NCBI RefSeq assembly: GCF_963676685.1
Contig: NC_092348.1
Span: forward strand, 13,764,001-13,828,000
Direction: 5' to 3'
DNA length: 64,000 nucleotides
DNA from: Mytilus edulis
Lineage: Eukaryota
Shown: one piece after another, positions 9,511 through 54,780 of the stretch
Layout: every line of letters begins with the position of its first letter
Numbering within the stretch: position 1 is the first letter of the stretch
Made by a program: the position numbers and the translations under genes
Notes under the pieces: generated by a model
The model's database searches: none
Told to the model about the DNA's origin: nothing
What the model saw: the letters and a program-made list of their open reading frames with translations, nothing else

Positions 9511-9593
9511 GTATTGTAGAGAATATTCAGTGATTGCAATGACGATAGATAAATAAATTTGCAGATTCTAATGTTATATAGCAAAAAATAATG

Positions 9594-9744: not shown

Positions 9745-9897
9745 GGTTCATCAACGCATGCTGCACGCTTTTGAGGAGGAAGAAAAAGTTTATCTTTTGC
9801 AAACAAGTTGTTTATTATATATATAGAAATTTAAATTGATATTTTTGTTTATTATAAGTATATTTAGATAAATTTATCATCATTTTATCTGAATATT

Positions 9898-11620: not shown

Positions 11621-11689
11621 GTGATGTGTTGTCCCCTCCGTTGAATCGTTCCCCACTGGAAGAGGAAAACTATACTTCTCTTCCTCATC

Positions 11690-14557: not shown

Positions 14558-14564
14558 ATTCTGT

Positions 14565-14661
14565 TATCTAAATTTATGAAGGGGAGGTATTTAATGTAAT
14601 AAAAATCAAATTTTTAGAATTAAAATTTAGTTTTGTAAATTAAATACTCACCTTCATAAAT
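14565..14661 (+). repeat. DIRS internal complementary region (ICR)
   Basis: The first half is the reverse complement of the left end (9594-9634) and the second half the reverse complement of the right end (~14823-14883). They join through AAAAA at 14601-14605. Confidence 0.95.
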
Positions 14662-14702
14662 CAGAGGTCCCCCCTTCATCCCCTTAGTGCCTAGCGTTTT
14701 AA

Positions 14703-14883
14703 GGAATAAATGGTGAAGGTTTAGGACGCACAGATATCAGGTGGGAGAGGTTGTCACGGGGTCATGGTTCTTTTTCTGGCTGGCTTCCGGTTGAATAATG
14801 CAGCGAGTGGACTGATATCTAAATTTATGAAGGTGAGTATTTAATTTACAAAATTAAATTTTAATTCTTAAAATTTGATTTTT
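14703..14883 (+). repeat. DIRS right ITR with 3' extension
   Basis: Inverted copy of the left ITR plus an AT-rich extension ending tgattttt. Confidence 0.95.
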
Positions 14884-15599
14884 CTTTGTAGAAGAATACT
14901 ATTGCTGCGATGTGGAAGAAAAATATACCTTTTGCTACTGAATGTTGTATCAGTTCCTTTGATGTGGGTAGATAATGTGTGACAAAACTGTGTCTGCACT
15001 AGACAAAAAAAAACCAACATATAGCACAGATAATATATTAAAAAAATAAAGTTACTTAGAGTGTTAAATAAAAAAAGTTTTAACAGAAGGGTACATTATA
15101 TTCTTAATGTCGTTGACATGTGGTTGTCCCGAATAGTATATCAATATTTGTATAAATTATTATAAAAAATTGCAAACTTACCGCATGTTGAAAAATATTT
15201 CGATCACGAATGATGTTTACGCGTTAGTGGTAACCTTTACACAACTTTTTTAAATTAATTATACCGTTAACAGAGGGTTCTGACAAAATCAGTTACTATC
15301 ATGAAAGACATATTTTATAGTTATCTTCTTTTGGAGTTACGATAGTCTTCCGTAAATTTTCAATGGCTATTATTTCGGTAACAAGGTCACATATGATATT
15401 AGAAACACACACATACAACATCGTGCATACCAACCTAGCGGCTGAGTAATTCTTTAAAAAAACGCGTGTACATGGAGAAATTACAAAAAGACGATTGTGG
15501 GCTCCGCCATGTTGGGATCACCATAACTGCACTTACATTGATGAGATTAACACCAGTTATCGTTTCCTAATATAGATGAAAGTAATGTTCTTGAATTAA

Positions 15600-31571: not shown

Positions 31572-32960
31572 TGGCTTCTTTTGTCTTCCTGTTTTTGACA
31601 AGCATCTGAAGGAACTCCGATTCATTTGAAAATAAGAAGAGGCGCACAGTTCGTTTCCTCAGGAATGCCGACAATTTGTTGAAAAGTTTACATCACAATT
31701 CAACAAATATGTTGTCGATAAGAAATTCCAGCATACTGATCACTTTGTTTTACCCTTTTGTTCACTATTAACAAAAATATGCCTTATGATATCCCAAAGT
31801 TATAAATTTATAGCGTATACTAGCTACCATTTTTATGTTGAAAGGCATTGTGGATTATTGGTAAAGTGAACAGGAGGGAATTTCCTCTTTTCCTAATGTA
31901 AAGGTTCCGATCTTACGGGTTTGAAAAGACGGAAAAGAGCTACATCACAAATAATACTGACAAGTCTGTATATTGAAGAACATGCATTGATACATCCTTT
32001 GTCAAGTGCATATTTAAGAAAATTAACAGGCAGTGAAAAAAAGAATAGTTCTAATTAAGGAATGACTAATATTTTTTCTGTCTGAAGAAATAACATAAAA
32101 AAATTGCACACTGAATAACGCGCGTAGCGGGTTATTTAACAGTGTGCACCACATTTTTTATGTTATTTCGAATATACAGAAGAAATATGACAGTCATTTC
32201 TTATAATTTAATTCTAAATTCCATTTTAAACCGTAGAAAACCATGAAAAAACGTTGATGACGTCACGGTCACATGACTAAATAATGTCTATGGGCTGACA
32301 ACAAAATAACGTCAGCCAATCAGAAGACGCGTTACATCCAAAATTAAATTATTGTAATATAACCCTTGTGGATGATGGCAGATGTGAAAGAAGGTAATCA
32401 AAGCTCTCAGAGGGCGATCTAGATTTGGAAGAATTAATTTTACATTAGGCTGATGGTAAAGTTTTTGCCCATGACTACGTTGTTGTCGTAAGGTTGTATT
32501 AACATTTCCATCACTGCAGGCAGGACTTGACAAATTTCCTACTCCTTTGATGTTATTATTGCAATCATATGGCATTGCATATCCCTTATCTCTCTTTACG
32601 GAAAGGAGTACTTAGTGCAGTGCTATTTGTGTGGTGATAAATTTTCTCGCTGATACGTACTTTCATAAATAAAGAAGGATTATGGTTCGGTTGATTAAAA
32701 TGGTTATAAAGGACCCTTAATTGAGGATTTATATTATCAGACCGGTGTTGATTCATTCTTTGACGCAATGTCTGACGAGTTAACTAACATAAAGTAGTCC
32801 ACACAAAGTACATTCGATTCCGTACACGACAGTGTCCGTTGAACAGTCCAGAGGCTCGGGAGATTTAGTATGATATGTTTTAGACGTAAAGTTACTTGTA
32901 AAATCAGGAGTCGTGATTAATATATAACATGTCTTACACGTGCTTTTTTCCCCATTTTAT
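31572..32960 (-). mobile_element. Naiad-type PLE, 5' part with N-terminal GIY-YIG endonuclease; internal deletion in the RT
   Basis: CKTC...LDCSTDTVVYGIECTLCGLLYV...LRQRMNQHR (32950-32745) lies upstream of RT motifs on the minus strand and is collinear with 52840-54780. Confidence 0.88.
32055..32352 (+). mobile_element. Hairpin-type non-autonomous insertion without TIRs (family member 1)
   Basis: Absent from the sister PLE at ~54465. TTAAG start, hairpin 32056-32203 with apex GCGTAGCG, and an end reading ccaatcagaa...aaattat. Confidence 0.8.
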
Positions 32961-33434
32961 GTTTACAAGAATAAATGATAGTTGTTGATTCACTTGTAGC
33001 CTGTGTCTTTAAACAGTGAAAACTATTGACTCATCATGGCTTTAATTTATGAAAAGTATCTGCATTTTTATTATCTCTTTCAAATACGTCGTTGTTAACA
33101 TTTAAGATATTTATGCATTTGTTCCCATTTTTGTCTGTGTTTGAAAAATTTCTGTATGTCATTCTGATTGTTATTGATTTCTTTCATTATGCTTCTTTCT
33201 AATTTCTTCGTTTCTATGCCTGTCCTGAAAGAATGACGGATCAGTTTCGTCTCCTTATCTCCTTGTCAAGATTTAAGACGACAGCTACTAATTCGTTTTA
33301 GAGATGATACCTTTGATAACTATTTAGAGATGAGTCACTGTACAGCAGGAAATGTTGCTTTTCAATATAAAAATGGTATCCTAGTAGCATACGCTATTAA
33401 TTTATTACTTTGGGTTCCCATACGGCAAATGTTA

Positions 33435-33629
33435 AGGAATGTATCTCCCTCATGCAAAGCTCCGATTCCTTTCACGGATTTGGCTATACTTTTTGGACCT
33501 TTTAGATTATAGCTCTTCATCTTTTATATAAGCTTGGGATTTCAAATATTTTGGCCACGAGCATCACTGAAGAGACATGTATTGTCGAAATGCGCATCTG
33601 ATGCAGGAACATTGGTACCGTTAATGTTA
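33435..33629 (+). mobile_element. Truncated retrozyme insertion flanked by a 7-bp direct repeat (AATGTTA)
   Basis: Absent at the paralogous site (~1640). AATGTTA at 33428-34 and 33623-29. Contains an intact hammerhead. Confidence 0.85.
33561..33604 (+). ncRNA. Minimal type I hammerhead ribozyme with intact core
   Basis: Stem I GCATCA/TGATGC; CTGAAGA; stem II GACA-tgtat-TGTC; GAAA; short palindromic stem III T-gcgc-A; predicted cleavage AUC^ after 33598. Confidence 0.92.
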
Positions 33630-34800
33630 TTGGTAATAGTGGACAAATCAAAAGCAAAAACATTCTATTTTTGTGTATATTTTGGAGTTTAGTATGACGT
33701 CCAGTATCACAACTAGTATACATTTTAGTATGGAGGCCAGCTGAAGCACGCCTCCGGGTCAGGAGTTTCCCTGCTGCATTGGTGACCTTCAGCTGTTGTC
33801 TGCCCTTTAGTCGGGTTGTTGTCTCTTTGACACATTTCCCATTTTCATTCTCAATTTTACACGAATGAAAAAGTGATCAGTACGTTGATTGGGTTCCATT
33901 AATTTATCCCCCAGAACTCGAAACTAAAGAAAAAGCAGACACGGCTATATCTGCCTTATTTTAATACATTTTTTTCGAATTTGACATACACGGTCATCTC
34001 AGTACTACAATCTATAACAAACGAGACGATTTTAATTTTTGAAACTATTAATTTCCTTCCACTTTATTATTAATATACCAACTTCACCTGCATATGGGAT
34101 ATACATTTCCCAACTTTTTTCGGTATTCAAGATCTTGCAGCTGCTACTCAGACTTCACAAATAGCACACGTTGTGACCTTGATTATGATCTTAAAACGCG
34201 TTCCAGTATTTATTTGTCTTTTTGAATATCAGTCAATGTTTGTTGATATCCATCTGATCGACGTGGCTCGGTACGTGTATATCCCGTAATTGTGCTATGG
34301 TAAATTTTTGTATTCTTGTCTTTCATTTTTTGCTTCTATGCTTTGTCAATATGCCTTTTTATGCTTCTTTGTTTGTTTACAAAGTTATTAACATTATAAC
34401 ATTAAAATATGTTGGCTGCTGTACCTATATTTTGACATTTTTACCTATTATATTATGTCTGTCTGTTTTGTTCACAGATCGTTGTCATTACAACGAAATT
34501 TTATGCAACTGTGATACAAGTGAGAGGTTTGGCTACCTATAAAACCAGGTTTAATCAACCATTTTCTACACAAGTATTAAGTGAGGAATGTGAGAGTTGT
34601 AATCCATTCGTTTGATCTGTTTTTTCTCAGTGTGTTTATTTTTTCCTCTTGATTTTTGAAGGCTATTTATTTTAAGTGGATTGAGAAACAGAGAGATTTG
34701 GTTCCGAGAGTACTACTTTCATACTTAGCTTTATGTCGTCGTTATTTTTTTATTATTCATTTTATTCAAATTTTAATCGAAAAAATTAACTCAAAATATC

Positions 34801-36977
34801 ATTCTAATATGACGTGCTTCTTTCGCTTTGTAAACAACACCGTGATAAAATTCTCGATATATCTATACTTAGCGCAGACTCCAAGATGTACACAAATGGC
34901 TGTTTAAATATGCCTCCCACGTAAATCCACATGTATCGTAACCTATGTGTAAACGGTTGTGGATTTCGCTGTGTTAACAATTACACTTGAATAAAACCCT
35001 ACAGAACATTTATTCTGATTCTGATGCATAACAAAAAGAATTTACACATTAGAGAACGGAAAAATGGACAAAAACAAAATAAATTAAAATTCCGCGAAAT
35101 TCCAGTAATGATTTTTGCGCATTAACGTCATTTCAAAACAAGACGTCATACGAATGAAAACGTCAAAGCTGAAGGTTTTTCTATTGCGTTTACCTTCTAA
35201 ACTCGGATACAATTGCATTAAAATAAAGTATTGAGGTGGGTGTTGCTTGTTTTCTGTTCTATTGCATTATTCGCACATTTACTGATTTCAGCAAGTCAAC
35301 ATGGCGGCTCCTTGGTTACAACATGTCAACAGTGAATTTGAAAGTAGCTTACGATAAAAAATGTATTTCAAGAATCTTCTTCTCTGAAACTACTGGGCCA
35401 AATACTTTCAAACTTTAACTGAATGTTCCTTAGGGTATCTAATTTATAAATTGTATCCGAAGTTTTGATCTATCAACAAACATGGTCGCCATTGCTAAAA
35501 ATAGAACATAGGGGTCAAATGCAGTTTTTGGCTTATAACTCAAAAACCAATGCATTTAGAGCAAATCTGACAAGGTAATATTGTTAATCAGGTCAAGCTC
35601 TATCTGCCCTGAAATTTTCAGATGAATCAGACAACCTGTTGTTGGGTTACTGCCCCTGAATTGGTAATTTTAAAGAAATTTTGCTGTTTTTGGTTATTAT
35701 CTTGAATATTATTATAGATAGAGATAAACTGTAAACAGCAGTAATGTTCAGCAAAGTAAAATTTACAAATAAGTCAACATGACGGAAATGGTCAGTTGAC
35801 CCCTTTAGGAGTTATTGCCCTTTATAGTCAATTTTTAACCATTTTTCGTAAATCTTAGTAATCTTTTACAAAAATCTTCTCCTCTGAAACTACTGGGCCA
35901 AATACTTCCAAACTTTTACTGAATGTTCCTTAGGGTATCTAGTTTGTAAATTGTATCCGAAGTTATGATCTATCAACAAACATGGTCGCCATTGCTAAAA
36001 ATAGAACATAGGGGTCAAATGCAGTTTTTGGCTTATAACTCAAAAACGAAAGCATTTAGAGCAAATCTGACGTGGGTAATATTGTTTATCAGGTCAAGAT
36101 CTATCTGCCCTGAAATTTTCAGATGAATCAGACAACCTGTTGTTGGGTTGCTGCCCCTGAATTGATAATTTTAAGGAAATTTTGCTGTTTTTGTTTATTA
36201 TCTTGAATATAATTATAGATAGAAATAAACTGTAAACAGCAATAATGTTCAGCAAAGTAAGATCTTCAATTAAGTCAACATGACCTAAATTGTCAATTGA
36301 CCCCTTAAGGAGTTATTGCCCTTTAAAGACTTTTTTCACAATTTGTTCATCATGTTGACTTACTTTTAAAAATCTTCTCCTTTGAAACTGCTGTATCAAT
36401 TTCAGCCAAACTTAGGCTAAATGAGTTTCAGAGTATCTAGTATAAATTTTATATTTTATTTCCTTGTATGTCAAGAAACATAGCTCCTATGGCTAAAATA
36501 GAACATAGGAGAAAATGATTATTTTTTTTTGGCTTTTGAAGAAAATAGGACGATCCAAAAAACATTTAAATAAATTGAAAAGCCAAAATAATCATTGATG
36601 AGAGATTTAACCAAAAGAATTAAGGTGAGCGATTCAGGCTCTTGAGAGCCTCTTGTTTTTCTAGCGGTTAGTTAAGAAATCACTCATGCAGGTTTATTAG
36701 CCGATTTGTTTTACATTTAACGAACAGTGGGTAAAATAGAACAGCCACACACAAGGTATACCCATCATCGCTTCAGTTTTTTAATGATCGTATTTGTCCT
36801 ATTAGAATCGAAATAATTCATGGAAGCCATAGATTTCTTGTAAATTTACACATGGCCTGGGCCGTGATATTCGTTAATTTTATCCCTCGCTAACGCTCAG
36901 GATAAAATTCGAATATCACGGCCCAGGTCATGTGTAAATTTCCAACAAATCTATGTCTTCCATGAATTATTTCTTAA
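34801..36977 (-). mobile_element. Hairpin-type insertion without TIRs (family member 2), containing a nested HINE
   Basis: Absent from paralog copy A (~3073). Termini ATTCTAATATGACGT...CATGAATTATTTCTTAA match the reverse complement of 50428-51051. Hairpin at 36810-36973. Confidence 0.8.
35370..36657 (+). mobile_element. Helentron-associated (HINE/DINE-like) element carrying ~500-bp tandem repeats
   Basis: Units begin at 35373, 35873 and 36371 (third diverged). 3' end is ggtgagcga, the hairpin aggctcttgagagcct, then cttgtt. Confidence 0.75.
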
Positions 36978-37189
36978 TTTGAGCATGGTAAATATATTAA
37001 ATAATAGCACGGAAGCACATGTATTTGTTTTGGTAAAACACGTGTGTTTGTTTACATCAACATATGTTTTAGAATACCTGTTATATTTGCTGTTTGATTT
37101 AAATGTCATGTAATTTATAATGTTATTATTATGAGTTCTGCATTACGCGGACTAGCATACTGCGTGCTACTGCGTTGCCTGTATTATAA

Positions 37190-38150
37190 CCACGACAGAC
37201 CACCGTTTCGAAGACGAGTTTCCACAACTCTATAAGTTCTTAATAGAGAAGCTGCATTTCCTAGTTTGCCTGTACCAGTACCGCCGACAGCAACCCAGCA
37301 AAGAGCGTCACAGCCACGTGCACAAATAAGTGACAGCACATTTCAACTGTTTACGTCGTACTTCGATTCTACAATATCTGCTCTGAAGAACGAGTTGAAA
37401 AAGGAAACGTCGGTGCAACTAAAGAGTGAAGCCGAATCCAATTTACTTTCAATTCCGAAGTCCTTGCTGGTCTACATAAGTGCTGATTTGTTTTAATGCA
37501 TATTTCTATTATGTCATTGTATAATGTTCAATCAGTATGTGACACAATAATAAAATAAAATAAGACTACGCTAAGCTATACGCAGAGCACTCACAACCAT
37601 CAAGAAGAAGAAGAGTCGTACTAAACCTTACGCTAAGCTACTGTTTCCAGACTTCCTACTAATAGTCTAGATTGCCTCATCAACAGAACAACCAGTCGCC
37701 CTTTCGGCAATGTGTTAGGAATGCCACCAATGTGGACACTGTAGGACAAAAGTCCCAATAGAAGCAGCAAGCAATTTACATCAAGTAACAACCAAGCAAC
37801 ATAAGATAAAAGATAAGTATCTTAATTTAGTAGATGAATATTTGTTGCATGGGCACATGAATATACTTTTTGAAGATGTTTTAAAAGTATTTTGGTAAAT
37901 TTGATTTTTTTAAATTTGCCAAAGGCGTCAAAAGTAGTTTATCTAAAAATGTAGTTTTTTGGGAGAACATTGGAGCAAGCAAATTTATAATTTAAAATAA
38001 TATAAAATCAGGTTATATGATTCCTTTTGTGAGTTAGCCACCCCCTATGAAATTCCACAATAATACATCTGCAGTTGATAAAACTGATTTTGTAAACGGA
38101 GCTTGTCTCTAACTTTCGAAAAACGGATGCGTACACGAAGTACCATCCCA
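37190..38150 (+). mobile_element. Ngaro/DIRS-like gag-RT remnant (paralog of 3350-4510)
   Basis: Degenerate knuckle at ~37713-37755 and IKSGYMIPFVS / LSKNGCVHEVP motifs. Confidence 0.65.
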
Positions 38151-39846
38151 GTATTCAGACAGTATCAACTGTTCAGGGTTTGCTCAATAAAGCATTTAAT
38201 TATAGTATAGAATTAAGATGGGCAAAAACAGTTCAATTGATGCATATGTTTTGTGATGGAGATAGGAGTTTCATAAGGGCAAATTATAGTCGCAGGAAAA
38301 ATGGGGCACTTATATCGCCGACTTGGGTGAAGATTAAGTCACCATACACCACAAAGACTAAGTGTGGGCTATTTTCTGCATCAACTGAGTCGTCCAATTT
38401 TAAGATACTCTATTATATTAATTTGCAAGTATACAAATTGTAAACTAAGTTTACAATTGTGTTCCAATAAATATGAACAATATATTTGACTGAAATATTT
38501 GCATCAACGGAGCTTTATTTTGATATTAACTTACACACCAAAATGCGGCTTTCAAGCCATAATGAAATCTATTTATTTGAAATACTAAAGTAACTTTACT
38601 TTATTTGAAACATTTTAAACATGGCTAAAAGAATAAATAAAGTTACAAGTACCTGCAGCGGTGACTTTAGTCTTCCGCCCTCCTGGGTGTAATATTGACA
38701 AGTGACTAACTCGAAAAGTGTTATATTAGTACATGTGTATATATATATGGGTAATATTGCCGCGCTTTGAGTTCATGCATAACTCATGCCATTTGAATAT
38801 AATACATATCATTTAAATAATAATAAAGACTCGCTTTATCTTTCTATTGTACTAATTTAAATATTCAGTACGTAAAGCCAAACATAGCGTACAAAGCTAG
38901 TTTGTTTCAAAATACGCAGCGAAAAAATACTAGTCATCAATCGTCAAGAAACATGTGTATGAAATATGAATATGATATGAATGTGAAACATATAAAACTG
39001 AAAACACAAATAACACAATATGGTAAATAATGAAACAAAATAGATCCATATATCCGGTGCCACACACCCACTCCTGCAAAAAGTTTCGTCTCGAAACTAT
39101 CTCTAAACCAATATATCAAACCTATGACAGTTTTGAAATTTGGGCAATCTAGATGTGCATGCGGCAAACGCCTCTATACCATATAGCAATGACCAAAATT
39201 CAGGACACTTCAATAGGATTCACAAACAAATAACAACAACAAAAGATATCAAATAGTCAAATAAAATTAACAAAAATATCCCACATTACTATAAATTGTC
39301 GTTGACAAACGATCAATCTAAATTCTTGCTGATGTACCTCATCCACTAATCTGTTGTACAAATATCTAAATTTCCCACTCATACATATAAATATACATCA
39401 TTTAAATAATAATAAAGAATTAGGTCCAGTCCATATGCATACTTTTTTAAAATACGCATATGGTCTGAATGTACACTTACGGTCTGCCAGATTACAAGAC
39501 GTTGGTCAAGTTTATTCGATACCTTGAAATGTATATCACAGATCAACATAAGTTAAATTGTAATTGAAATAAAAACTTAATGTTTTAACTTTTAACTATT
39601 TAAAAGTTAATCTCCTGTACAATATATCACGGAAGAAACTGGACATAAATTATATAAATATATAAGTGCCCCCCCCCCCCCCCTTTCAAGAAAAGTTCTG
39701 GATCTGCCACTGAATGATGTATGAAAGCTTCTAATTCCCCTAGGTAAATCCGGCATAAATCCAATTCAAAAAGTCAAAAGGTGATTTTTTTACTGAAGTT
39801 ATCCATTTATCTTCCTTAGAAGTTACAGACTAACTCTATTTTAAAG

Positions 39847-40071
39847 TTACATAAGACTTCTTACAGCAACAGGTAGCAGGATCGTTCCATAGCCCGTTGG
39901 CAGCATGACCGTGATGATAACCATACAATTGTTGTGCCCCAAAATACTTTGTGTTTGCTCACAATTTAGCCCTTGAACTTTGTGCTGATTCAAAATTTCT
40001 GTTAATGCGTTTTCGAAATCGTCTTCCCATCCTGCGTCGCCATCTTTAAAACATTCTGAGGCCGTTTTCAT
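39847..40071 (-). pseudogene. RecQ-like helicase motif I fragment
   Basis: LNCEQTQSI...VMLPTGYG resembles the Q motif plus the LPTGxGKS Walker A. Frameshifted after TGYG. Confidence 0.5.
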
Positions 40072-40211
40072 TAGGACGGTTTTGATTGGTCAATATAAAT
40101 ACTTTCTGCGGTCAAATATTACGTAATGAAAGGTCACAAAAGTGAAAGAGACAAGGGTAGTTGTTAGATCTCAAATGTAGTATAACGTAATAAGATCAGT
40201 ATTTTATTAGA

Positions 40212-40505
40212 TTGGCACATTCTGTGTCACTGAACAAAGAAACAACACCAGGAAACACAAAAAAAGAAAGAAAGAAGACAAGAAAAGCTGCTTATAAGGC
40301 TGCAAGAACGGAAGGAAACAAAACTTCTAGTGATTCTTCTGAACAACAGGCATCAAAATCAGCAGAAGCAAATACAAATTCTTCATCAACTCAACCTGAC
40401 ATTTCGAAATTTTTAACCCCCAACAATAAAACAAAAGCAGCCAAGGAAAGAACCCCACCTACTCCCAATCAACCAGATGGGAAAAGACAATCAGTACATC
40501 TATAA
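40212..40505 (+). pseudogene. Probable Tx1/L1 ORF1 C-terminal fragment
   Basis: Basic, low-complexity tail ending DISKFLTP...ERTPPTP, followed by a long AT-rich spacer. Confidence 0.4.
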
Positions 40506-42009
40506 ATTATAGAACATGTATGTTTATTTGTCTTGTCTATTGTATTTATGTTTGTGTGTATCATGTATTTATATAAAGATAATTGAATGGAATAAAGATT
40601 CAAAAACAAATGTTACAAGAGTAGATATGAAAAAAAGAAAAGTAAAACTTTTCAAACATTGTATTATAACATATATCGTCATGTTAATGTTACTATTGAC
40701 AAGTATCTTTGATAATACCAAAAACAAAAAATGATAGAGATAAATCAATTATATTAGAAAAGTTAAACTGTATGAGTTCTATTTAAAACCTTTCAGGATT
40801 ACAACTTCTATCTATAGTAGATGTATTCGAAAATATCAAATCAAAAGAAAAGATTTACCTACCATAACATCTCTTCACACCATAAATCATATAAAGTAAA
40901 TGACAATAGAAAAAAGAAAAATATTATGAAAAAAATAAATAAACACTGTCAAAATGTTACGAAAAACAAAACATAAAAAACAAGCAGTACTTTACTAGAG
41001 TTTCATAGATTTGAAATTTTTTCACATTACTTAGTGAGAAAACTAGAGACAGATTATTATTTTTCTCAGTCAAAACCATACATTTGTTTTAGTTTGTAAA
41101 CAGCAAAAAATGTGTCATTTTGTAATTTCAGTTATAGTTCTGTATACAATGTATGTTATATATTTCAAGTATGTAGTAATTGTGTATGAGTATGTATTAT
41201 ATGTTGTTTCAAAATTAACATCTCGATATCGGTCAAAATACAATCGTGATACAGACTATAACAATATTGTTATAATCCAATTACAAAAAAAGAAAATTGT
41301 TTAACGTAATTATTTTCACAGGTAACACCCACGTTAAAAAAATACAATTAAAAGTAGGAGAAATAAAGTTTACTTTAAAAATGCTACCCAAACGTAAAGT
41401 ACGCTCACTAATTAAGCGTAATATAAAAATCGAATATCCAATCAAAAGTGTCAAATTGAGACACTATTTTTCATAGTATATGGTTAAACCATGTTCTATA
41501 TTTCGTCACGCACAATTAACTTTGTATTGTACACAACTATCTATTCAATGATCAATAGGTAATTACAAGCAAGCAAGTCAAATTCTGTTACTACTTTAAA
41601 AATATGTCCATGCAATTATTTCACCCTTAAGCCATTCAAACAATTAAAATTCACAAACAGAAACAACATTTATTTATCTATATACGCTTCTGTTTTTAAT
41701 TTTAAATGAATACAATTACTTTTCATTTACAACCTGAAATCATTTATTCCATTAAAATTTTAATGAAACAATCTATTAAAATTTGACTTTCTCACAAAAA
41801 AGATTAAGGTGATGCCTAAAAATCATACATAATAGCAAGGAATCTTCAATGAGTCGATCTATAAATTTTAAATATACGATAATAATAATAATAATATTAC
41901 TTCAATCATCTATTTATTGATAAGAGGATTTTCAATAAAGAACATGAGTCTCACAAACACATAGTTTTAAAGATTAAAAATACACAATTTGAAAAACGTT
42001 AAATGTGGT

Positions 42010-44050
42010 TTACATGTCAAATGACATAACTTTGACATCGAAAGAGACCACTTTCAAACGCTCTACGCTCTTGGGTACATGAATGATCAATTCGTTTTCA
42101 TCATTGTAGAACTGCACTTTTTGGTCCGTCTGGCGCAAACAAAATACATTGCTAATTGTAGGTATATTTTCCGTGTCATCAGATACAGCTGGAAGAGGGG
42201 GTTGTAATGCGTCACTTATATTTCTGCTCATTTCTATGCTCCGTCTTTTGTATGTCTAAACCGCGTTACTACGATGACCACTGCGTGATTTGACAGCCGA
42301 TTCATCAACACCACTATATTATAGGGTTGTTACACATGAAACCTTTCCGGAATGGTTTGAAATATAACGGTTTGAACAATCTATTCCTGCTTTATCAAAC
42401 ATAAGTTTCATGTAAGTAGACAGTTTATTCACGCCAAAGACTTGTGCAGAAAATTTATTTCCCTCGTTTTTCAAACTAATTTTCCCGATTGGCCTTCTGT
42501 AAAAGGCCCCTTCACTCGAAATATATTTCAAATATGTGCTGAACAGTTTAACAATGTATCTTGGGTTTGAAGTATCTTCCCAATGAGTATTTTGTGTCGG
42601 TTCAATTTTGCGGTGATTGATTCCCCCTTGTACATATTTGGATACCCTACCGAAAAACTTCAAACAGCGTTTGTTTTGCGTATAATCAATAAAGATTTTA
42701 TATTGTGAGGCATCTAAATCTCGGTGTTCGTCAATTTCACGGAAACCGAAGAGTTTACAATTGTAATAAAACACTGCAAAACTTAGGCCCTCAGATGTCG
42801 TCATGCTAAAAATGCCTTTCTCCCATAAGATCCTTTCGTCATCAATAGATACGGGATCTGCCCTCTTATGAATTCCTACCAAAAGTTTTAAAAAAATCTG
42901 ATAAAAAAAGAAAACTGAATTTGAAATACTTTTGTAGAAAAGGGGGGTGTATTAAGGTTTCTTCAAATACCATTGAATATTTGAAGTAATATTTAATTGC
43001 AAAAGTACTTTTTATCTGAAACATTTGACTTTTCCTCCTTGAGCAAACACATATACTAAAAATGTTATGACAGACGGACCAACGGACGACAAACATGACG
43101 GACGACGAACAGTGACAATTATCATATGAAAAAGGATAAAGAGTATATTTACACAATAGAAATAAGATAAAACAATGGGATATTAAACAAATACAGTTTT
43201 GATAATTTTAAGAAAAATGAAAAACAAATCATAAATAAATCAATGAATTCGGCACACATCAAGTGTACATTGTTACTTGGATGGAGAGTTGTCTAATTGT
43301 CAGTCATACCACATCTTCCTATATCTATTAGAGTAAATGTTTTTGAAAAACTATAATTACGATGATGTATAAGACAAGCATGCATTCTCAACAAGATAGT
43401 ATGTCACTGCTTTTTCTTGTCAATTTTGTTTTAAAAATTGGATCGCATTTTGAATGTGCATGTAATACTTTTCACTGGATGTTTGGCAACATCAATTTTT
43501 TTTTATGCCAAAGCGTAGAATAGGTGTTTAATTTTTATATTTATAATATAATTTTAAAAAACCATATGACTTACCAATACCATCATGGGTTAATTCTTTC
43601 ATTCTTGCATCTAATGCCTTCTAAAACGTCGAAAACGTGGAGGTATTTTTTTGCAAAAAAAATATTTCAGAACGACCATCATCTCTTAGGTAACGCTGTA
43701 GTCCATTTGTCAAGTTAATGAGTGTATTATGTGGATATGGGGACCCATCCTCGCGCCTGCATTCCATTACAAATCTAGACATCCAGAAGTCCATCTGCTG
43801 TAAATCTGCAGATTTCATTTCAACCGGAACACATGTATAATGTTCAGTAGCGGTTATAGGGTTACAGTTTCTGTTTTCAGCCCATGTTTTCCAAACATTT
43901 ACACTCCAGTTAGTAGAACTTTTAGTTTTTGCTGGTATTCTGTCACTTATGCGCTTTTCAAACTCTGTGGTTGAAACTGGATTTGAAAATCTATTCTTAT
44001 TGTCACTAAAAACCAACTGTTGAGTTTGAATTATATCCAAATCTTCTAAT
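42010..44050 (-). pseudogene. Crypton-type tyrosine recombinase (DUF3504 / ZMYM-QRICH1-like), two exons, decayed
   Basis: Exon 1 (~44040-43575): IPAKTKSSTNWSVNVW...FVMECRREDGSPYP...GLQRYL. Phase-1 intron from GT at 43574 to AG at 42877-76. Exon 2: GFR, NHSGK, SGHRS and TYKR motifs. Confidence 0.88.
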
Positions 44051-44289
44051 TCCCATTCCGTATCGTGTTTTGAAATTATTTGAAAATCTGAAAATCAGGC
44101 AGATCCATACTTTCTGACTTAGCCACTTTCACCTGTTTACAACTCGCATATCAAACTGTGTTTAAACACACAAACATTTTTGTGATTACAAGTTACCACC
44201 ATTTGTGTTCTCTTTATTTTACTAGCATTGTTTAGTTGGATTAATATTGTTCACTCAATTCTTTACCATAGCTTAATTATAATGCTTTT

Positions 44290-44530
44290 GTTAAATCATT
44301 TAGATGATTGCAAAGAAATGATAGACTGAAAACTTTGATTGTTTTTAATCATTTAGATGATTGCAAAGAAAGGATAGCTGGATTACGTTGATTGAATTTA
44401 ATCCTTTAAATGATAGCTTGAATACTATGATTTTTTTTAATCATTTAAATGATAGTTTGATTAATATGATTGATTTTAATCACTTCAATGCTTTCTTAAT
44501 TAGTATGAGTGTTTTAATCCTTTAAACAAT
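44290..44530. repeat. Degenerate AT-rich minisatellite
   Basis: Recurrent tttaatcatttagatgat / tttaatcctttaaatgatagc motifs. Confidence 0.6.
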
Positions 44531-44745
44531 TTCTAATGTACTATGATTCTTTTTAGTTATTTTATTGATTGCATCTTCAATTACCAGCTGGATATCAGTG
44601 TACGAAACTATTTTTCAGTCTTATATTCACTTTTTGAAAGAACAATGTTCTCTCTTTTAAGGGAATGTCTGAATGAATTGCACAATTATTATTCTAAAAT
44701 GTTCATACATTATTTGTTTATTTTCATAAAATAATGCTACATTAA

Positions 44746-47700
44746 CACTGTGTCTAAACCACACCGGCAAAATTTGCTCGGACTCGATAGTATCTAACAT
44801 CCGGCACAATGACGGAACACCAATAGACAAAAGAAAGGTAGGTTTCTCCTTATTTTTTTATTTTTTTTATGATATCGAAGAATATATATACATATACAAC
44901 TATTTTCTATTGTGAGATGCAATATTTTCTACAACCGTTCTATATTAACGGAGAAATAATTTATTAATTATGCGTTACCTTTTTTTCTATGTTTAGCTTT
45001 TCTTTTACTATACTGAATACTGTATTCCTTTATTTCCAATTTGAGGGAGTCCCACAGAAGTGTAGGATCTATTTCATTTTTTCCTATCCCATTACTATGT
45101 TTTTTGTATAATTTTATTTATATTGCCTTCGTATTCTTGCTCGTTGAGAATACCGTTGTTAATATTCCATTACCCCGGGCCTCTTGTTTCAGATGATACA
45201 GATTGTAACTGTATTGATACTGCTTGGTGGTCAGTACTTTTAAAAAGAATAGGCCTAATATCACATGACTTTACGTTTAACACGAAATCTTTTTTAACTT
45301 GGAACTTCTTCTATCAATATAAGCTTAATGTCATTAGTGTAAACGCTTAAGGCCAGTCACTCATTTACAAAATGTATTAATCACTGTGTCTAAACCACAC
45401 CGGCAAAATTTGCTCGGACTCGATGGTATCTAACATCCGGCACAATGACGGAACACCAATAGACAAAAGAAAGGTAGGTTTCTCCTTATTTTTTTTATGA
45501 TATCGAAGAATATATATACATATAAAACTATTTTCTATTGTGATATGCAATATTTTCTACAACCGTTCTATATTAACGGAGAAATAAGTCAAAATGCATG
45601 TCAAAATGACGAATTGAGTGAACCTTGCCTCAAAATTGTTTAATTTCTCGTTAAATTGTTCACATTGTACGAAAAGAAAGGTACGGGAAGATAGATATTG
45701 ACACGGAGATTGCAAATTTAGTTATTATGAGCATCTCAATAATTGTATTTTTGTGTATGGAACGAAAGAAAAGGGTCATGTCAAATTAAAATAAACCGGT
45801 TTCGTCAATGTTGTTACTACACAATCACCCGGTTTCGTCTATATATATCACCCGGTTTTGTTTTTTTTTGGTTTTTTTTAACAAACAATTTATGAAAAGA
45901 AACTTTGGCACGGATCTGAACATTGTCTTTCGAGAATTTAAAAATATATTTATTGTAAAGTAAACTTGGCGTGTTAAAATCTATTTTAAACGGGCACTTT
46001 TGGACATAGTTAATTATGATAATACACATTTTCCTAATGAAACTTCAAACTAATTTTAAATGGAATACAAATACCGAATAGCAAACACTGGTATATTTTC
46101 TTTGTTTATAATAGTAGTATGTAAAGATGAAAAATAAAAGGATGTGTTTTGATTGTGCCATAATTTTAATTTACTATACTATACTGTTCTGCACAAATTA
46201 ATCATGCATGCAGTCCTGCCAGATTTTCTGGTACTATATATACTGTGTTACTTGCGCACTAAAGCGAGTTTTCACACTTAAGCATCCATAACATAACAGT
46301 GAGATTTGTAACTTTCTCCCCGTTTCTGGTAGGCACATTTATTTTCATAGGCATGTTTTTCACATTATTTTTACAGTTCAAATTCATTTTTTGTACAGTT
46401 CAAATTCAATTGAAACTTCAAGATAACTTTCGAAAACAATATCTGACATTTTTGTATTTTCAATGTGAATAAAAGTTGGTTTGCAAAACATGACCGTCAT
46501 TTATATATAGGTCTTATTAAGAAGAAGTGACGGTAACCACTTATCCCATAAACATTGACAATGAGACAACTTTCTTTTAGACACAAAAATTATGTTGAAT
46601 TAATCAAGTTTAGGTCAGCGTATGCCTTAAACAATGAGAAAAACACACAAATTGCATGAAAGCAAGCTATAACAGGGCCCTAAATTATAAATGTAAAACA
46701 ATTCAAACAAGAAAACTACCTGCCTATTTTATGTTCAAAACGCATATGGTATAAAGCAACCAAAGACAACCATGGAATTACAAGCGTGTGATTCGGGAAT
46801 GGACTGAGTCAAAGTGTTGTCGCTGACACAAACAGTACAACAAAAGTACAAATAATAAAAAATGATGAAAAAACCTTAACTCGTCCGATGACAGAGCCTG
46901 TATAGTAAATGCGCGATGTGTGCCAAAACTTGTATCATAGTTAAAATTATCCCTTAACGATTGTAGAAAAGATTACATACATAGAATGATTAGATTACTT
47001 ATAAAGGTGTCCATCCTTTTGTGCGAGAAAATGACATATCAATTGTGTGTTTCGATTTTTAAGACCGTAAACTTTAATTTCAAGTTTATACATGTTCAAT
47101 ATATTTTCCCATAACTCATATAGAACACGCATATTTAGAGAGCGTTAATCTCAATATGCTGTTAAAAAATTTCGGAATGCAACGTAAATTAAAATATTTG
47201 TGTTCTATAAGAGTAGGAATTCAAGTGTTTGCTTATTATTTATTTGAATCTGCGACTCATATAAATAATAAGCCGTTGTCAGGTGAACGAACTTGTTTTC
47301 CAACGACCCACAAAACTCCTTTTGAACGCTGAAGTTAAATAATCAATTATAATGTAATGCGATTATGATTTTTTTTATTTGACCAAACCGGGTTATGCAT
47401 TTTGAAATCTATGACGAAACCGGGTTGTATACATTGACGAAACCGGCCAGTTCCATTTTGACATGACCCATTTCCTTCGTTCCATACACAGAGATACAAT
47501 TATGGAGATGCTCATAGTAACTAAATTTGCAATTTCCGTGTCAATATCTATCTTCCCGTACCTTTCTTTCCGTACAATGTGAACAATTTAACGAGAAATT
47601 AATCAATTTCGAGGCAAGGTTCACTCAATTCGTCATTTTGACATGCATTTTGACTTATTTCTCCGTTAATATAGAACGGTTGTAGAAAATATTGCATATC

Positions 47701-47863
47701 ACAATAGAAAATAGTTTTATATGTATATATATTCTTCGATATCATAAAAAAAATAAGGAGAAACCTACCTTTCTTTTGTCTATTGGTGTTCCGTCATTGT
47801 GCCGGATGTAAGTTACTGGTATCGAGTCCGAGCAAATTTTGCCGGTGTGGTTTAGACACAGTG
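44746..47863. mobile_element. Non-autonomous DNA transposon with CACTGTG...CACAGTG ends, ~470-bp TIRs and ATTAA flanks (Transib/RAG-like or Chapaev/CMC-like)
   Basis: TIR copies at 44746-44959 (partial), 45382-~45860 and ~47400-47863. ATTAA at 44741-45 and 47864-68. Confidence 0.75.
44964..45381 (-). repeat. 418-bp inverted duplicate of 47864-48281
   Basis: ORFs 45123-45350(+) and 47895-48122(-) differ by one residue. Both segments are 418 bp. Confidence 0.95.
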
Positions 47864-48595
47864 ATTAATACATTTTGTAAATGAGTGACTGGCCTTAAGC
47901 GTTTACACTAATGACATTAAGCTTATATTGATAGAAGAAGTTCCAAGTTAAAAAAGATTTCGTGTTAAACGTAAAGTCATGTGATATTAGGCCTATTCTT
48001 TTTAAAAGTACTGACCACCAAGCAGTATCAATACAGTTACAATCTGTATCATCTGAAACAAGAGGCCCGGGGTATTGGAATATTAACAACGGTATTCTCA
48101 ACGAGCAAGAATACGAAGGCAATATAAATAAAATTATACAAAAAACATAGTAATGGGATAGGAAAAAATGAAATAGATCCTACACTTCTGTGGGACTCCC
48201 TCAAATTGGAAATAAAGGAATACAGTATTCAGTATAGTAAAAGAAAAGCTAAACATAGAAAAAAAGGTAACGCATAATTAAGAACTACAATTAAAAATAT
48301 TAAATGAAAAATCTAATAATGAAGATAATGATTCTATAAAAGAAAAAATATCCACTTTAGAGAAAGAGCAAGAAAATCAATATTAATACAAAGCAAAGGG
48401 ATTTCAAGTAAGATCAAAACAAGAGTGGGTAGAATAGGGAAAAAAATAATGCGTATTTCCTAGGTCTTGAAAAATCTAAACAAACGAAAAAGACTATACT
48501 TAAACTGAGAAACAGATCAAGATAAAATATTAAAGCTTGAAAGAAATTTTTATGCTAATCTATACGACACTAAACAGAAACCGGATATAGATGTT

Positions 48596-49039
48596 AAACA
48601 AGAATGTGTCCAAAGTACACGGATGCCCCACTCGCAGTATCCTTTTCCATGTTCCATGGACCGTGCAATTGGGTAATAATCTTATTTGGTATTAAAATTA
48701 GAAAGATTTTACTATAGGGAACATATGTACTAAGTTTCAAGTTGATTGGACTCCAATTTTATCAAAAACTACCTTGACCAAAAACTTTAACCTGACACTC
48801 CCACTTTCATTTTCTATGTTCAGTGGACCGTGAAATTGGGGTCAAAAGTCTAATTTGGAAAATTAGAAAGATCATATCATAAGCAACAAGTCTACTAAGT
48901 TTCAAGTTGACTGGACTTCAGCTTCATCAAAAACTACCTTGACCAAAAACTTTAACCTGAACGGACAGACGCACAGACGAACGGAGCCACAGACCAGAAA
49001 ACATAATGCCCCTTTACTATCGTAGGTGGGGCATAAAAA
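48596..49039 (-). mobile_element. HINE/DINE-1-like element with two ~165-bp internal repeats
   Basis: Sub-terminal inverted repeat atgccccac/gtggggcat, terminal hairpin with cttgttt end, and ACGG/ACAG microsatellite. Inserted in an A-run of the LINE (DVK|KYISE). Confidence 0.8.
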
Positions 49040-49430
49040 TACATTTCTGAAACAAAACGTAATTATAAACTATCAGAAGAAGAAAGTAAGTCTTGTGACG
49101 GAAACGTAACGCTAGAAGAATTAACCATTGCAGTCAATAACCTAAAGATAAAAAAAATGTCCTGGAATGGACGGAATAAGTATATATTATAAACTTTTAT
49201 AAAAAGTTTTGGGAACTTCTTGGACCGCTGCTTGTAAAAAATTTTAATTTTAGCTTTGAAAATAAACATCTGCCATTACGCAAAGACAAAGTTTACTGAA
49301 TCTAATCTATAAGAAAAATGATATTTTAGAACTTGCAAATTATAGACCAATATCATTATTAAATAGTGATTACAAAATACTCTCATACCCTCTAGCTTTA
49401 AGAATAAAAAATTCTTACATTTAATCATTA

Positions 49431-49796
49431 ATAATTACATTAGATGTATGTTTCATTATGATACGTTATTCTGATTGGCTAACTGCACATCACCTGTTAT
49501 TCCTTAAGCAGTTGTATCACACAATAAAACTTATCATTCATGATGACACGAGGTCCCATAATAAAGTGCACATGTAAATTAAATAAAAACTTGATGTAAA
49601 TCGTGTTTTCGTGACCCTAGCTAAAAAATGTAATTATAAGTATTAAATGCTTCTTTTTGTAACTTCATAGGGTTGTAAAAGCGTTGACCGTGCGCACATT
49701 TTTAGAATGAAGCGCTTCCGCGCTTCATACAAAATGTACTTCGGTCAACACTTTTACACCCCAATAAAGTTACAAAAAGAAGCATTCAATTCTTAA
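49431..49796 (-). mobile_element. Hairpin-type insertion without TIRs (family member 3)
   Basis: Removing it restores LINE codons LIINADQTGYIKNRF with only AT shared. Hairpin 49637-49795 with apex GCGGAAGCG (minus strand). TTAAG start and ccaatcagaa...taattat end. Confidence 0.82.
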
Positions 49797-50427
49797 ATGC
49801 TGATCAAACAGGATACATAAAGAACAGATTTCTAGGTTTTAATTTACGCCAAATACATGACGTAATAGATAACGCAGATAAGTTTTATATAGAAGGAGCA
49901 ATTTTATTCATAGATTTTTTGAAAGCTTTCGACACATTAGAATGGAATTTTTTGTATCATACTTTAGAATATTTTGGTTTTAATAAACCCTTCATAAATT
50001 GGATAAAAACCTTGTATACAAATATAAATGGTTCTATATTTAATAATGGTTGGATATCTGCTCCTTTTAGAACCCTAAGAGGTATCCGGCAGGGATGCCC
50101 GTGCTCTTTACTTTTCGTAATGTCAGTAGAAATAATGGCTAACCAACTAAGGCATAACAAAAATATAAGAGGCATAGAATTAAAAATTGATAGTAAAACA
50201 CATTGCGTAAACATCACGCAAGTTGTTGATGAAACAACTCTATTCCTAAATTCTAAAGAAGAAATTCGAACAGCATTAAATATAATCGAAATCTTTGGAA
50301 CTTTTTCTGGATTACAACTTAATAAAAATAAAACAGAAGGAATTTGGATTGTAAACTAAAGCATTGTAGAGATAAAGTAGATGAATTTAATTTCACAGAC
50401 AAACCTGTAAAAGTGCTAGGTATATAT

Positions 50428-51050
50428 TTAAGAAATAATTCATGGGGGCTTGAACATATCGTGATTTTACCACGGGTTGACCCTTTATGATAAATATTTT
50501 ACCCCTGAGCGATAGCGAGGGGTAAAATATCGGCATAAAGGAACAACCCGTGGTAAAATCTAGATATATTCAAGCCCCCATGAATTATTTCGATTCTGAT
50601 AGGACACATACGGCAATTCTTTTGGATCGAAGCGCTCTAGGTGTAGGCAAATATTTGCCGTTCCCATAAATAAACGCACTAATAAACTAGCGTAAAAGAA
50701 CGGAGCAAACTGCATTAGTGACATGCTTAAACTATTTAAAATAATGTATTTAGACAGTTTTGGATGAATTTGAATGATAATTTATTTATATGTCTTATAT
50801 GATGTACAATAAAGGGCTTTTGCCACATTTTAGCATCATTTGTGTATGTTTCCTTGTGATGATTTTCGGATTCACAAGCGTGTATTTTCCCGTAAAATGC
50901 TTACATTCTAACGTCATTGTTCTATGACGTCGGGTATCTCATTCTTAAAAAAGCATATGACGTGGGAGTACAATCCGAACAGCACTGGCAATATATTCAT
51001 ATTTTACCACGGGTGTGTACTCGAAGCGTTTGAAGGACGTCATGTTAGAA
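50428..51050 (+). mobile_element. Hairpin-type insertion without TIRs (family member 4)
   Basis: Removing it restores LINE codons VLGIYFGINKK. TTAAG start and hairpin 50432-50591 with apex GCGATAGCG. Confidence 0.82.
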
Positions 51051-52149: not shown

Positions 52150-54780
52150 TCATAGTAGAAATATATCAAAATTAGAACAATATCACACTGACGGGATCTT
52201 TTAAAGTACAGAGTCACGTTATAAGAACCAAAGAAATACAAAAAGTTGCATATACAAAACACACCAGCAAAAAATGAAAGACAATACAAACACATTGACG
52301 AGATGTTAAGTACCGAGCCACGTTAAACGGATATCACATAAAACAATCCAACAGTAAAAGTAATATTAATAATAGAACAAAGACAAATGAAAGAACAATA
52401 AAACACGTTGTTAAGATCATAAACAACATCAGTACGCAGAATCTATACATCAAGACCATCATGTATTATTTGTAAAGTTGATACGGAATATTTATCAACA
52501 AGGTCATGGTACCTTCCGAGTCTACTTTTTTAGTTAAAGGACGAGACGTTCTTTGACATACCCCTGGTTCATCAACTTTTTACTCAGACACTGATGACGT
52601 TTTACATAGTCTGAGTAGGAGCTGAAAGCTCTTGAATATCGAATAAGTTGGGATATGTATATCCCATGTGCAGGTGAATTTGGTACATTGCTACTAAGGT
52701 GGGGGAAATTTATAATTTCAAAATTAAAATGTTGTTTCTTTAATTTCTAGTTCTGGTGGATATATTAGTGGAATCCAATCAGAAAAGTTTGGATTGTTTA
52801 TGGAAAGAACATCAATATATCTGAAAGTGAAATAAATAATCTGGCTTCTTTGATCCTCTTGTTTTTGACAAGTGTCTGAAGGAACTCAGATTCATAAGAA
52901 AATAAGAAGAGGTCGGCAAGAAGAGGCGCACAGTTTCTTCCCATAGAAATGCCGACAATTTGTTGGAAAAGTCTACCTCCAAACTCAACAAATATGTTGT
53001 TGATAAGAAACTCCAGCATACTGACCACTTGTTCTTCTGTGTAGCATGTTTTACCGTTTTGTTTGTCACTATTAACGAAATATGCCTTATGAAATCCCAA
53101 AGTAATAAATTTATAGCGTATGCTACCATTTTTATGTTGACAGGCACTGTGGATATTTTCTTTTAGGCGATTTTTCAATTTCACATGGGGAATGGTGGTA
53201 TACAGGGTTAAAAAATCAAAAGTTTGATAGAACTAATTTCAGAAAAAGACCGAGATTTAAAATTATCTAGAAGTTCATTAGAAGTTTTACGAATCCACAT
53301 ATGGTTAATACCACTACGCGAGTAAACAGTTTCACAGTATTTCTGAAGACCCTCTTTCACTGCGGACAGAATTTTAGTCAATCTAATGGACAATTATTTA
53401 GTGGAACATGAAGATGAGCCAGCAATATACCGTTGTTTTTACGAAATTTTATGAAGCTTTGGTATCCAAATACAAACAAGGTAAGTCCTCCGATTTGGTG
53501 TTCAATGTAATGTTTATTGCAGCCATGAATGACTTATGATTTGCTAAAATCTCATCCTTGTCAGATGATATGTCTTTGTATGTGGGATTACCTGAGTGTT
53601 CCTTTATACCTAATTCTTTTACAAGACATTCGTAGTAATACGATTTACATACAAAGACAATATTATTTGAAGCTTTGTCCGCAGAAACAACAACATATTA
53701 ATTATGAAGAGATGATGGACATTTCATGGCCTCTTTGTCTCTGAAATCGGACTTTGGTCGATCGTTCACACAGTTTATCAACTTGTGAATGCGACGTTTT
53801 ATCAGAGACCTAATAGTTTTAACCCATTCTGACAAAGTGTCCAGTTCAACTTTTTCTCGCTTAGCCCTTGCTCTGGCGTAGTCCTCAATGGAATACATAA
53901 TTATTTTGAAGTTATGGTTCCAATTGATGTGTTGGGGTTCTCTAAACTTAGGACCATGAGAAATCACCTTTCGGAGATTTTTATGTTGAATTATGTTTAG
54001 ATGCCCAGTTATAAAATGACCAGAGGGGCTGTAATTATAAGGCGAGTGGGAACAGTCACATGTCGAAGTTTTTTTTTAGATATTGTTCTAAGTCAAGGTC
54101 CTGCAATACTTGTTTATAGTTAAATATTCTAGGTGCAATGGTTTTTGGTGTAACTGTAGGATACGATAGGAACAGACTGATTTTGAAAATAAATAGGAAT
54201 TTTAAATGTTACCTCCTTGTGATGTAGAACGTTGCAGATATTGATTGCATGAATTCCTCTATTGGCAAAGTCAACAGGAAGGAATTTCCTCTTTTCCTCA
54301 TATAAAGGTTCCGATCTTACTGGTTTGAAGAGACGGAAAAGAGCTACATCACAAATAATACTGACAAATTTGTATATGAAGAAAATGTATTCGTGCCTCC
54401 TTTGTCAAGTGCATAATTTTTCAAACGTTTAAGAAAATTAACTGGCAGTGAAAAGAGAATAGTTCTTATATAATGTAACCCTAGTGGATGATGAAGATGT
54501 GAAAGAATGTCATTAAAGCTCCCAGAGGGTGATCTAGATTTGGAAGACTTTTTTACATTAGGCCGATGGTAATGTTTTTGCCCATGACTACATTGTTGTC
54601 GAAAGGTAGTATTAAATAAACATTAACATCACTGCAGGCAGGACTTGACAAATTTCCTACTCCTTTAATATTATTATTACAACCATATGGCATTTCGGTC
54701 CCTAATACCCTTATCCGGAAATTTTCTCTATCTTTGCGGAAAGGAGTACTTAGTACAGGGCTATTTGTGTGGTGTATTCA
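52150..54780 (-). mobile_element. Naiad-type PLE (Cys variant), 5'-truncated and frameshifted
   Basis: GIY-YIG tail (HHTNSPVLSTPFRKDRE, PYGCNNNI) precedes the RT: HGPKFREP, ADKASNNIVFVCKSYY, TLYTTIPH, GISMGRNCAPLLADLFL, FRYIDDVL. Confidence 0.92.

Follow-up and report, generated by a model that had tools for sequence, protein, structure and literature searches.

CryptonA transposons of animals, molluscs among their hosts, are known to have non-autonomous derivatives, which far outnumber the coding copies (Kojima and Jurka, 2011, PMC3212892). The mechanism by which Cryptons transpose has not been demonstrated, and a double-stranded circle is assumed (2026 review, PMC13565253). In bacteria, the integrase IntI recombines integron attC with attI by way of a folded single strand and one strand exchange, followed by replicative resolution (PMC3458562). 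Here we describe four elements, E1 to E4, in a stretch of 64 000 nt from Mytilus edulis (assembly GCF_963676685.1, contig NC_092348.1, positions 13,764,001 to 13,828,000), referred to below as the window, whose numbering is used throughout. They are the four stretches singled out in the original prediction, which was made from the letters of the window alone, and are numbered in window order.

On the evidence of their ends, genomic copies and empty sites, E1 to E4 are abundant, sharply bounded families of non-autonomous CryptonA-type (DUF3504 tyrosine recombinase, YR) transposons that lack genes and terminal inverted repeats (TIRs). Compared with the Crypton ends of the same genome, those of two families (E2 and E4) match closely and those of the other two (E1 and E3) match in design; mobilization by a Crypton is in our judgement nearly certain for E2 and E4 and very probable for E1 and E3. 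Two features described below, a mirror of the far end inside each element and a target site that is symmetric, go beyond what the original prediction contained.

The four elements and their terminal hairpins

E1 (32055–32352, forward strand) belongs to a family of about 305 nt, 20 copies of which have identical ends. E2, on the reverse strand, had been placed at 34801–36977; base 34801 is best read as the T of the target, and the unit is therefore 34802–36977. The window copy belongs to a family of about 940 nt and is enlarged by an unrelated nested repeat of about 1.3 kb (35366–36655, unstranded, with a 500 nt internal duplication), which is absent from the E2 family copy compared. E3 (49431–49796, reverse strand, 366 nt) and the young element E4 (50428–51050, forward strand, 623 nt) lie within the same long interspersed nuclear element (LINE). 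First-look candidates in the genome numbered 2156 for E1, 1611 for the left end of E2, 3201 for E3 and 1441 for E4; the family search scored 40 of these per element and yielded family copies of E2, E3 and E4 as well, the best 40 of E4 being about 99% identical. The 23 nt right end of E4 occurs in 380 exact copies. Three E3 copies in different contigs or places (L082, L083 and L084, L numbers denoting fetched loci) have both flanks in common, and there E3 has therefore multiplied as a passenger of another repeat.

As predicted, and as folding at the same positions bears out, each element begins with TTAAG and runs into a long hairpin (150–168 nt) with a conserved apex (GCGTAGCG, GCGTTAGCG, GCGGAAGCG and GCGATAGCG). 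The hairpins, each on the strand of its element, occupy 32056–32203 in E1 (+; apex mini-hairpin GCGTAGC at 32122–32128), 36810–36973 in E2 (−; GCGTTAGC(G) at 36888–36896), 49637–49795 in E3 (−; GCGGAAGC(G) at 49713–49721) and 50432–50591 in E4 (+; GA-GC-GATA-GC-GA at about 50507–50518). A motif-free scan of the 64 kb returned as long hairpins exactly those of E1 to E4, and four of the five occurrences of GCG-N1-2-AGCG in the window are at their apices. Whether this apex motif had been described before was left undecided in the original prediction. It had: all four apices fit the mini-hairpin motif GCGNAGC/GCGNNAGC, an unusually stable, nuclease-resistant single-strand structure that contains a sheared G-A pair and occurs at the priming origins of phages and plasmids and in N4 promoters (PMC13037366). 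Use at transposon ends is not reported in the available part of that paper, and a role of the motif in E1 to E4 is one that we infer.

The arms had been said to differ between copies. This applies less to E2 and E4, which have their first 18 nt in common and are 72% alike over 121 nt. In four comparisons between lineages the arms co-vary: compensated pairs number 17, 12, 17 and 16, and one-sided changes 4, 1, 2 and 0, respectively. In decayed relatives the changes are almost all one-sided.

An empty site could be found for each element, again as predicted. That of E1 is a sister repeat (54359–54563, 82% identity) and that of E2 a paralog (3061–3162, 78%) in which the register of the junction is uncertain by 1 nt. 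Contigs from other runs omit exactly 366 nt at E3 in three of four runs and exactly 623 nt at E4 in all four, a comparison that cannot reveal circles or strand, and the LINE reading frame is open across the joined flanks in both cases. The original prediction was right in denying these elements TIRs. The duplication of about 2 nt (AT/TT) that it allowed for is not one: there is no target-site duplication (TSD), and target and joined ends are merely alike over 2–3 nt (A-W^T, where ^ marks the crossover point). Long direct repeats are likewise absent from E1 to E4. The ends and empty sites together rule out the superfamilies that have TIRs and TSDs.

Far-end mirror, target site and crossover point

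Each element ends in 7–13 nt (R) that are reverse-complementary to a segment directly behind the right arm of the hairpin (R'). In E1, R' (32203–32213, +) is the exact reverse complement of the last 11 nt (32342–32352), as it is in E3 (49627–49637, −; last 11 nt, 49431–49441). R' of E2 (36801–36807, −) is complementary to the far end at 34802–34808, and that of E4 (50594–50600, +) pairs with 51044–51050 through some G-T wobbles. Since R and R' are complementary, joining the two ends of an element would lengthen the stem, and in the joined junction of each of E1 to E4, drawn as a duplex, 7 nt of the left-end strand lie opposite 5 nt of the mirror strand. We joined end to start and folded the product as DNA in 15 families, 4 non-coding and 11 YR-coding, chosen for having a hairpin and definable ends. 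R paired with R' in all 15, with 8–14 of 16 nt paired. The exact complement of R and R' averages 8.9 nt within a family and 4.4 nt in 210 cross-family pairs, only 15 of which reach at least 7 nt, mostly among six families with a common TTAGAA end. Six families initially omitted were folded as well, and the pairing was present in two of them (A and T), that is, in 17 of 21 families altogether.

Such an arrangement resembles the internal complementary region (ICR) of DIRS elements, which have inverted terminal repeats and an ICR (PMC13465315), and an alternative is that the right arm and R' only align the ends of a released single strand for circularization, the circle becoming double-stranded before integration. 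That R' tracks R from family to family fits this idea. A double-stranded circle would, however, still give both strand outcomes, which are not seen (below), and among the frames listed for the long copies, of which the YR frames were scanned against Pfam, no reverse transcriptase was noticed. We regard this alternative as improbable.

Two further motifs lie near the far ends. In E2, E4 and clade R, ACGTCA is found about 10 nt in from the far end; in E1, E3, families N and O and locus L200, a CCAAT(C) box is found 30–45 nt in from it. Both resemble what we take to be promoter elements, and in coding copies they point towards the YR gene.

The target was derived from 86 distinct sites (90 copies, minus 2 in tandem and 2 with repeated flanks). 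It is symmetric, TAW^T-N5-WTA, with two inverted TAW half-sites around 6 bp (T at −3 in 60, A at −2 in 80, T at +1 in 74, A at +7 in 52, T at +8 in 72 and A at +9 in 51). At +2 to +6 the target is unconstrained and differs from the donor, which it resembles at +1 only. Of 26 distinct right flanks selected without regard to the left end, 24 have T at +8 and 21 have A at +9. Spanning empty-site matches were available for 20 of the 90 copies; two were tandem self-matches, and the best matches of the remaining 18 have a gapless junction in 17 cases and a 1 nt gap inside a T run in one. As read from these junctions, the insertions have a single crossover point, and bases are neither duplicated nor lost nor carried over; coupling-sequence carry-over of the kind associated with Tn916-type elements was looked for at the junctions and not seen.

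These observations bear on the mechanism that is in print for Cryptons (PMC3212892, PMC13565253), in which the YR would excise a double-stranded circle and integrate it by two strand exchanges through a mismatched 6 bp overlap, repair or selection then keeping the outcome of one strand; the palindrome would bind protein, form a cruciform or act as an origin from which the circle is copied. The cuts that tyrosine recombinases make in the two strands are 6–8 bp apart (PMC3212892), and the target has the standard form for such a reaction, a symmetric site with a 6 bp spacer. However, the target spacer is unlike the donor at +2 to +6, and if two exchanges through a non-matching overlap were resolved by replication, some insertions should carry the donor spacer at the right end. 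This permuted form (right end, donor spacer, target), the product expected from the second strand, was found at none of the 380 exact E4 right ends. TTAAG directly follows 14 of them; 12 are E4 starts, and the other two are flanks reading TTAAG(T/C), with no hairpin and no sixth donor base, in about the number expected by chance. At the opposite end, the left arm was recognizable in 20 of 30 copies selected by their right ends, and all 20 have kept the 5 nt start, so that permuted left ends number 0 of 20. In a double-stranded junction, moreover, the W-T-R half-site would lie 7 nt from the cut, not 6, and would not be an inverted copy of R. The double-stranded circle also leaves unexplained why R' follows R family by family and why the apex is strand-biased, and we consider it rather unlikely, although less so than a circle made double-stranded after a splint.

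In two loci in which right ends are followed by TTAAG (L221 and L222), stacked hairpin elements or permuted products seemed possible; when folded, they turned out to be neither. The 12 head-to-tail E4 junctions among the 380 (within L213–L226) are far more than random target insertion would give, and the upstream copy is 5'-truncated in six of them; they may reflect self-targeting, concatemeric intermediates or later deletion. In L117, the host of an E2 copy is an E1-like element, and the copy lies at the edge of that element's internal mirror, as if the mirror had served as target.

Recombinase-coding partners in the genome

The genome contains at least 150 DUF3504 matches (430 candidates, 150 scored), and 100 YR loci were fetched as ten-kb stretches, hand-picked to sample families and hence not a random sample. 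In many of them a hairpin of about 150 nt stands at one end of a multi-copy unit. A clade around L148 has ends of the E2/E4 type: TTAAG and the hairpin follow the YR gene downstream, and ...ACGTCATRTTAGAA precedes it upstream. Of the 18 of its loci that were examined, six (L148, L175, L179, L185, L186 and L187) carry, around the YR gene, a hairpin start with TTAAG as well as a far end closing in TTAGAA, three have the right arm or R' together with the far end, six have one end and three have neither. The last 37 nt of E2 match L148, L173 and L187 at 95% and L180 at 97%, and the last 63 nt of E4 are 94% identical to L149. Long copies (2.8–4.3 kb) contain a YR frame and short upstream frames, the Pfam scan having covered the YR frames.

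All four open reading frames (ORFs) tested from this clade passed the DUF3504 cut-off, and two of them passed that for phage integrase. In the alignment L175 has a complete catalytic set (R, K, HxxR, H, Y), and in L149 the second catalytic R is replaced by K. By its predicted product, the autonomous partner of E2 and E4 thus encodes a DUF3504-type YR, and its assignment to CryptonA rests on this domain together with the animal host. CryptonF and CryptonS, which are marked by terminal direct repeats of 4–6 bp and a GCR1_C or other C-terminal domain, were considered and set aside, as there is no direct repeat beyond the 2–3 nt likeness and the four ORFs have no Pfam domain of this kind. A structure model of the L175 YR (predicted local distance difference test score 80.8) is closest to Cre (Z 16.2, root-mean-square deviation 5.9, 262 residues aligned) and also matches the Tn1549 integrase (Z 12.3), whose structures hold circular-intermediate DNA; this Cre-like fold is a point in favour of the double-stranded circle.

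The original prediction was correct in calling the four elements non-autonomous, and a tyrosine recombinase, one of the two mobilizers it named, in all likelihood moves them. It had also proposed looking for long copies with an ORF between the same termini, and such copies were found for E2 and E4, though for neither E1 nor E3 among the 100 YR loci. Two YR genes adjoined by E1 copies (L157 and L266) were examined for E1-type termini, and the copies there are insertions. E1 and E3 are filed as Crypton by design because neighbouring clades carry the corresponding features: L200 and L203 have the TTAAG start and CCAAT box in common with them, and families N and O have the CCAATC...AATTA far-end design.

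A rolling-circle nuclease of the HUH class had been offered as another possible mobilizer; it might be that of a Helitron, Helentron or Replitron, with the hairpin as its origin or terminator. The lack of a TSD, the T after the insertion point and the head-to-tail and 5'-truncated tandem copies would all suit such an enzyme. Nevertheless, the long copies with the same ends encode a DUF3504/phage-integrase YR (no genome search aimed at HUH genes with such ends was made), and a second half-site lies at +7 to +9 of the target, which makes this explanation highly improbable. The remaining candidate of the original prediction, a Crypton gene within the window placed at 42010–44050, fares no better. 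The gene (42319–44094, reverse strand; DUF3504 at 42319–42951, QRICH1-type domain at 43621–44094) is old and has no long hairpin nearby and no close copy among the 40 candidates scored, its nearest relative being 81% identical. In a quick tree, built from at most two of the fetched DUF3504 lineages per family with no outgroup, it groups with family I, outside the E2/E4 clade, and we reject it as partner of E1 to E4.

The position of the hairpin varies among the coding families. Families I, M, Q and T (L133, L134, L138, L139, L146 and L152), which the quick tree places within one branch, have it upstream of the YR gene, and the others have it downstream. In L191, L204 and L262 several related hairpins are stacked around the YR gene in both orientations.

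The window has about 33% G+C and is crowded with transposon remains; the assembly, of 1.37 Gb, has 14 large contigs. Of other features in the window, 44746–48284 has long inverted repeats (464 nt at 100% and 386 nt at 95%) and internal duplications, interrupts the LINE and looks like a young foldback or TIR element. The region 9584–14886 has a DIRS-like layout, with inverted repeats at 9615–9697 and 14753–14835 (99%) and a second inverted pair at 14598–14661 and 14823–14886; within it, a phage-integrase frame (13769–14557) scores under the Pfam cut-off.

Working model and related systems

We hypothesize, by analogy and as a fairly probable explanation, that the Crypton YR recombines one folded single strand in the manner of integrons and CTX phage and that replication resolves the product. 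What the sequences show is how the ends are built, the form of the target, a single crossover and a YR partner for ends of the E2/E4 type; from there we infer folding in vivo, a single-stranded circle and copy-out in the following order. One strand would be exposed, at a replication fork or as a cruciform, and the hairpin would fold on it, nucleated by the GNA/GNNA mini-hairpin. R' would then capture R, and the YR would join R to TTAAG, releasing a single-stranded circle whose junction, a duplex with 7 nt opposite 5 nt, would serve as donor site. The YR would exchange only the folded strand, at ^, with a double-stranded target of 6 bp spacer, and host replication would resolve the junction, as it does after integron attC × attI recombination and in CTX phage. 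In both, a YR acts on a folded single strand with unpaired bases, with one strand exchange and replicative resolution. Since the donor copy would persist on the other strand, the hundreds to thousands of copies would be explained. More broadly, we lean narrowly towards regarding animal Cryptons as the eukaryotic counterpart of integron cassettes and CTX phage, a copy-and-paste, single-strand class of YR elements in which a compact recombinase would act on a site defined by the folded structure of the joined ends and capped by a mini-hairpin, with scarless insertion into degenerate TAW^T-N5-WTA sites.

In favour of the folded strand we count the YR loci with E2/E4-type ends and their DUF3504-type products, the pairing of R with R', the form of the target, the gapless empty-site junctions, the absence of permuted E4 ends, the apex mini-hairpins with their strand bias and the arms that co-vary between lineages. 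A number of observations weigh against this hypothesis. No circle has been seen, single-stranded or otherwise, and the head-to-tail junctions in the genome (12 of 380) would confound its detection from reads. Pairing of R with R' is lacking in four of the 21 families (B, C, Q and S), their ends having been set from two copies; in family S, L150 has its hairpin beyond the stretch that is shared, starting with the complement of the gene-side end. The excess of G-A over C-T mismatches on the hairpin-first strand of the 15 families, 39 against 4, is in itself favourable, but it consists largely of tandem GA pairs flanking the apex, and because most occupy apex positions in related families the counts are not independent; six of the 15 families have one far end in common. 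The strand bias of G-T over A-C, 12 to 6, is not significant (P=0.24, 15 families), and computed fold energies favour the opposite strand in 2 of the 15. Between the arms of E2 and E4 there are 7 compensated, 12 one-sided and 6 uncompensated changes, and young copies gave no sign of arm-to-arm homogenization, 88 copies giving one compensated pair against about 0.3 expected. The search for the permuted form was confined to family E4.

On the side of the recombinase, too, there are points to be set against the hypothesis. No near-identical parent of E4 was found, L149 having no left arm and being 79–89% alike there, and no locus with both E1 ends or both E3 ends was present among the 100 ten-kb and 30 short YR loci. 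In L148 the first catalytic R is replaced by Q and HxxR carries a K, several members of its clade contain stops, and the L175 model is closer to Cre than to the integron integrase (Z 16.2 versus 12.2).

It is nevertheless of interest to consider what would follow. The end design and target supply exact donor and target substrates with which to decide in vitro between a double-strand and a single-strand route. Should the folded-strand route be true, single-strand tyrosine recombination would extend beyond bacteria and their phages, there would be an explanation for the high copy numbers that non-autonomous Cryptons reach, structure would allow many unclassified hairpin repeats of invertebrate genomes to be classified, and the activity ancestral to domesticated DUF3504 proteins (ZMYM, QRICH1, KCTD1) would become testable. 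Should it fail, what is left is a useful but ordinary annotation of four Crypton families.

Entries in Dfam or Repbase reportedly call Eulor5 and Eulor6 palindromic, and the hairpin may thus be known to curators. These two repeats and the salmon elements Crypton-N1_SSa plus CryptonA-N2_SSa are, like E1 to E4, short non-autonomous Cryptons, recognized by terminal similarity, and the available text on them does not mention a palindrome (PMC5753468). A terminal hairpin, an internal mirror or a single-strand route for Cryptons was not described in the literature searched, which does not extend to Repbase, Repbase Reports, Dfam, subscription journals or the supplements of PMC3212892, PMC5753468 and PMC13465315, which may bear on termini. 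The animal CryptonA elements of PMC3212892 resemble the partner of E2 and E4 in having a DUF3504-type YR as the only identified catalytic domain and in lacking TIRs. That paper reports no terminal repeats in animal Cryptons and does not mention a hairpin or palindrome, whereas the elements described here have a terminal hairpin, a far-end mirror and a symmetric target. Glomhoppers, fungal CryptonA elements, likewise encode a DUF3504 YR with catalytic residues; their boundaries could not be fixed, and a hairpin, palindrome or circular form is not mentioned in the available text (2026, PMC13465315).

Among bacterial systems, the strand-biased circularizing integrative elements (SEs) of Vibrio use a YR and form a circular copy of one strand while the donor stays; unlike E1 to E4 they carry four genes, and their att sites gave no sign of an inverted-repeat structure (PMC9345347). 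Integration of CTX phage is cited as a parallel case to integron recombination (PMC3458562, PMC9345347). Our working model resembles both, in that a YR would act on a folded single strand with unpaired bases and the unit would be duplicated, a likeness in manner of working and not in membership. In contrast to integrons and CTX phage, the system of E1 to E4 is eukaryotic, its recombinase is self-encoded and many degenerate genomic targets take the place of attI or dif; and in contrast to attC, the folded site would arise here only once the two ends of the element are joined.

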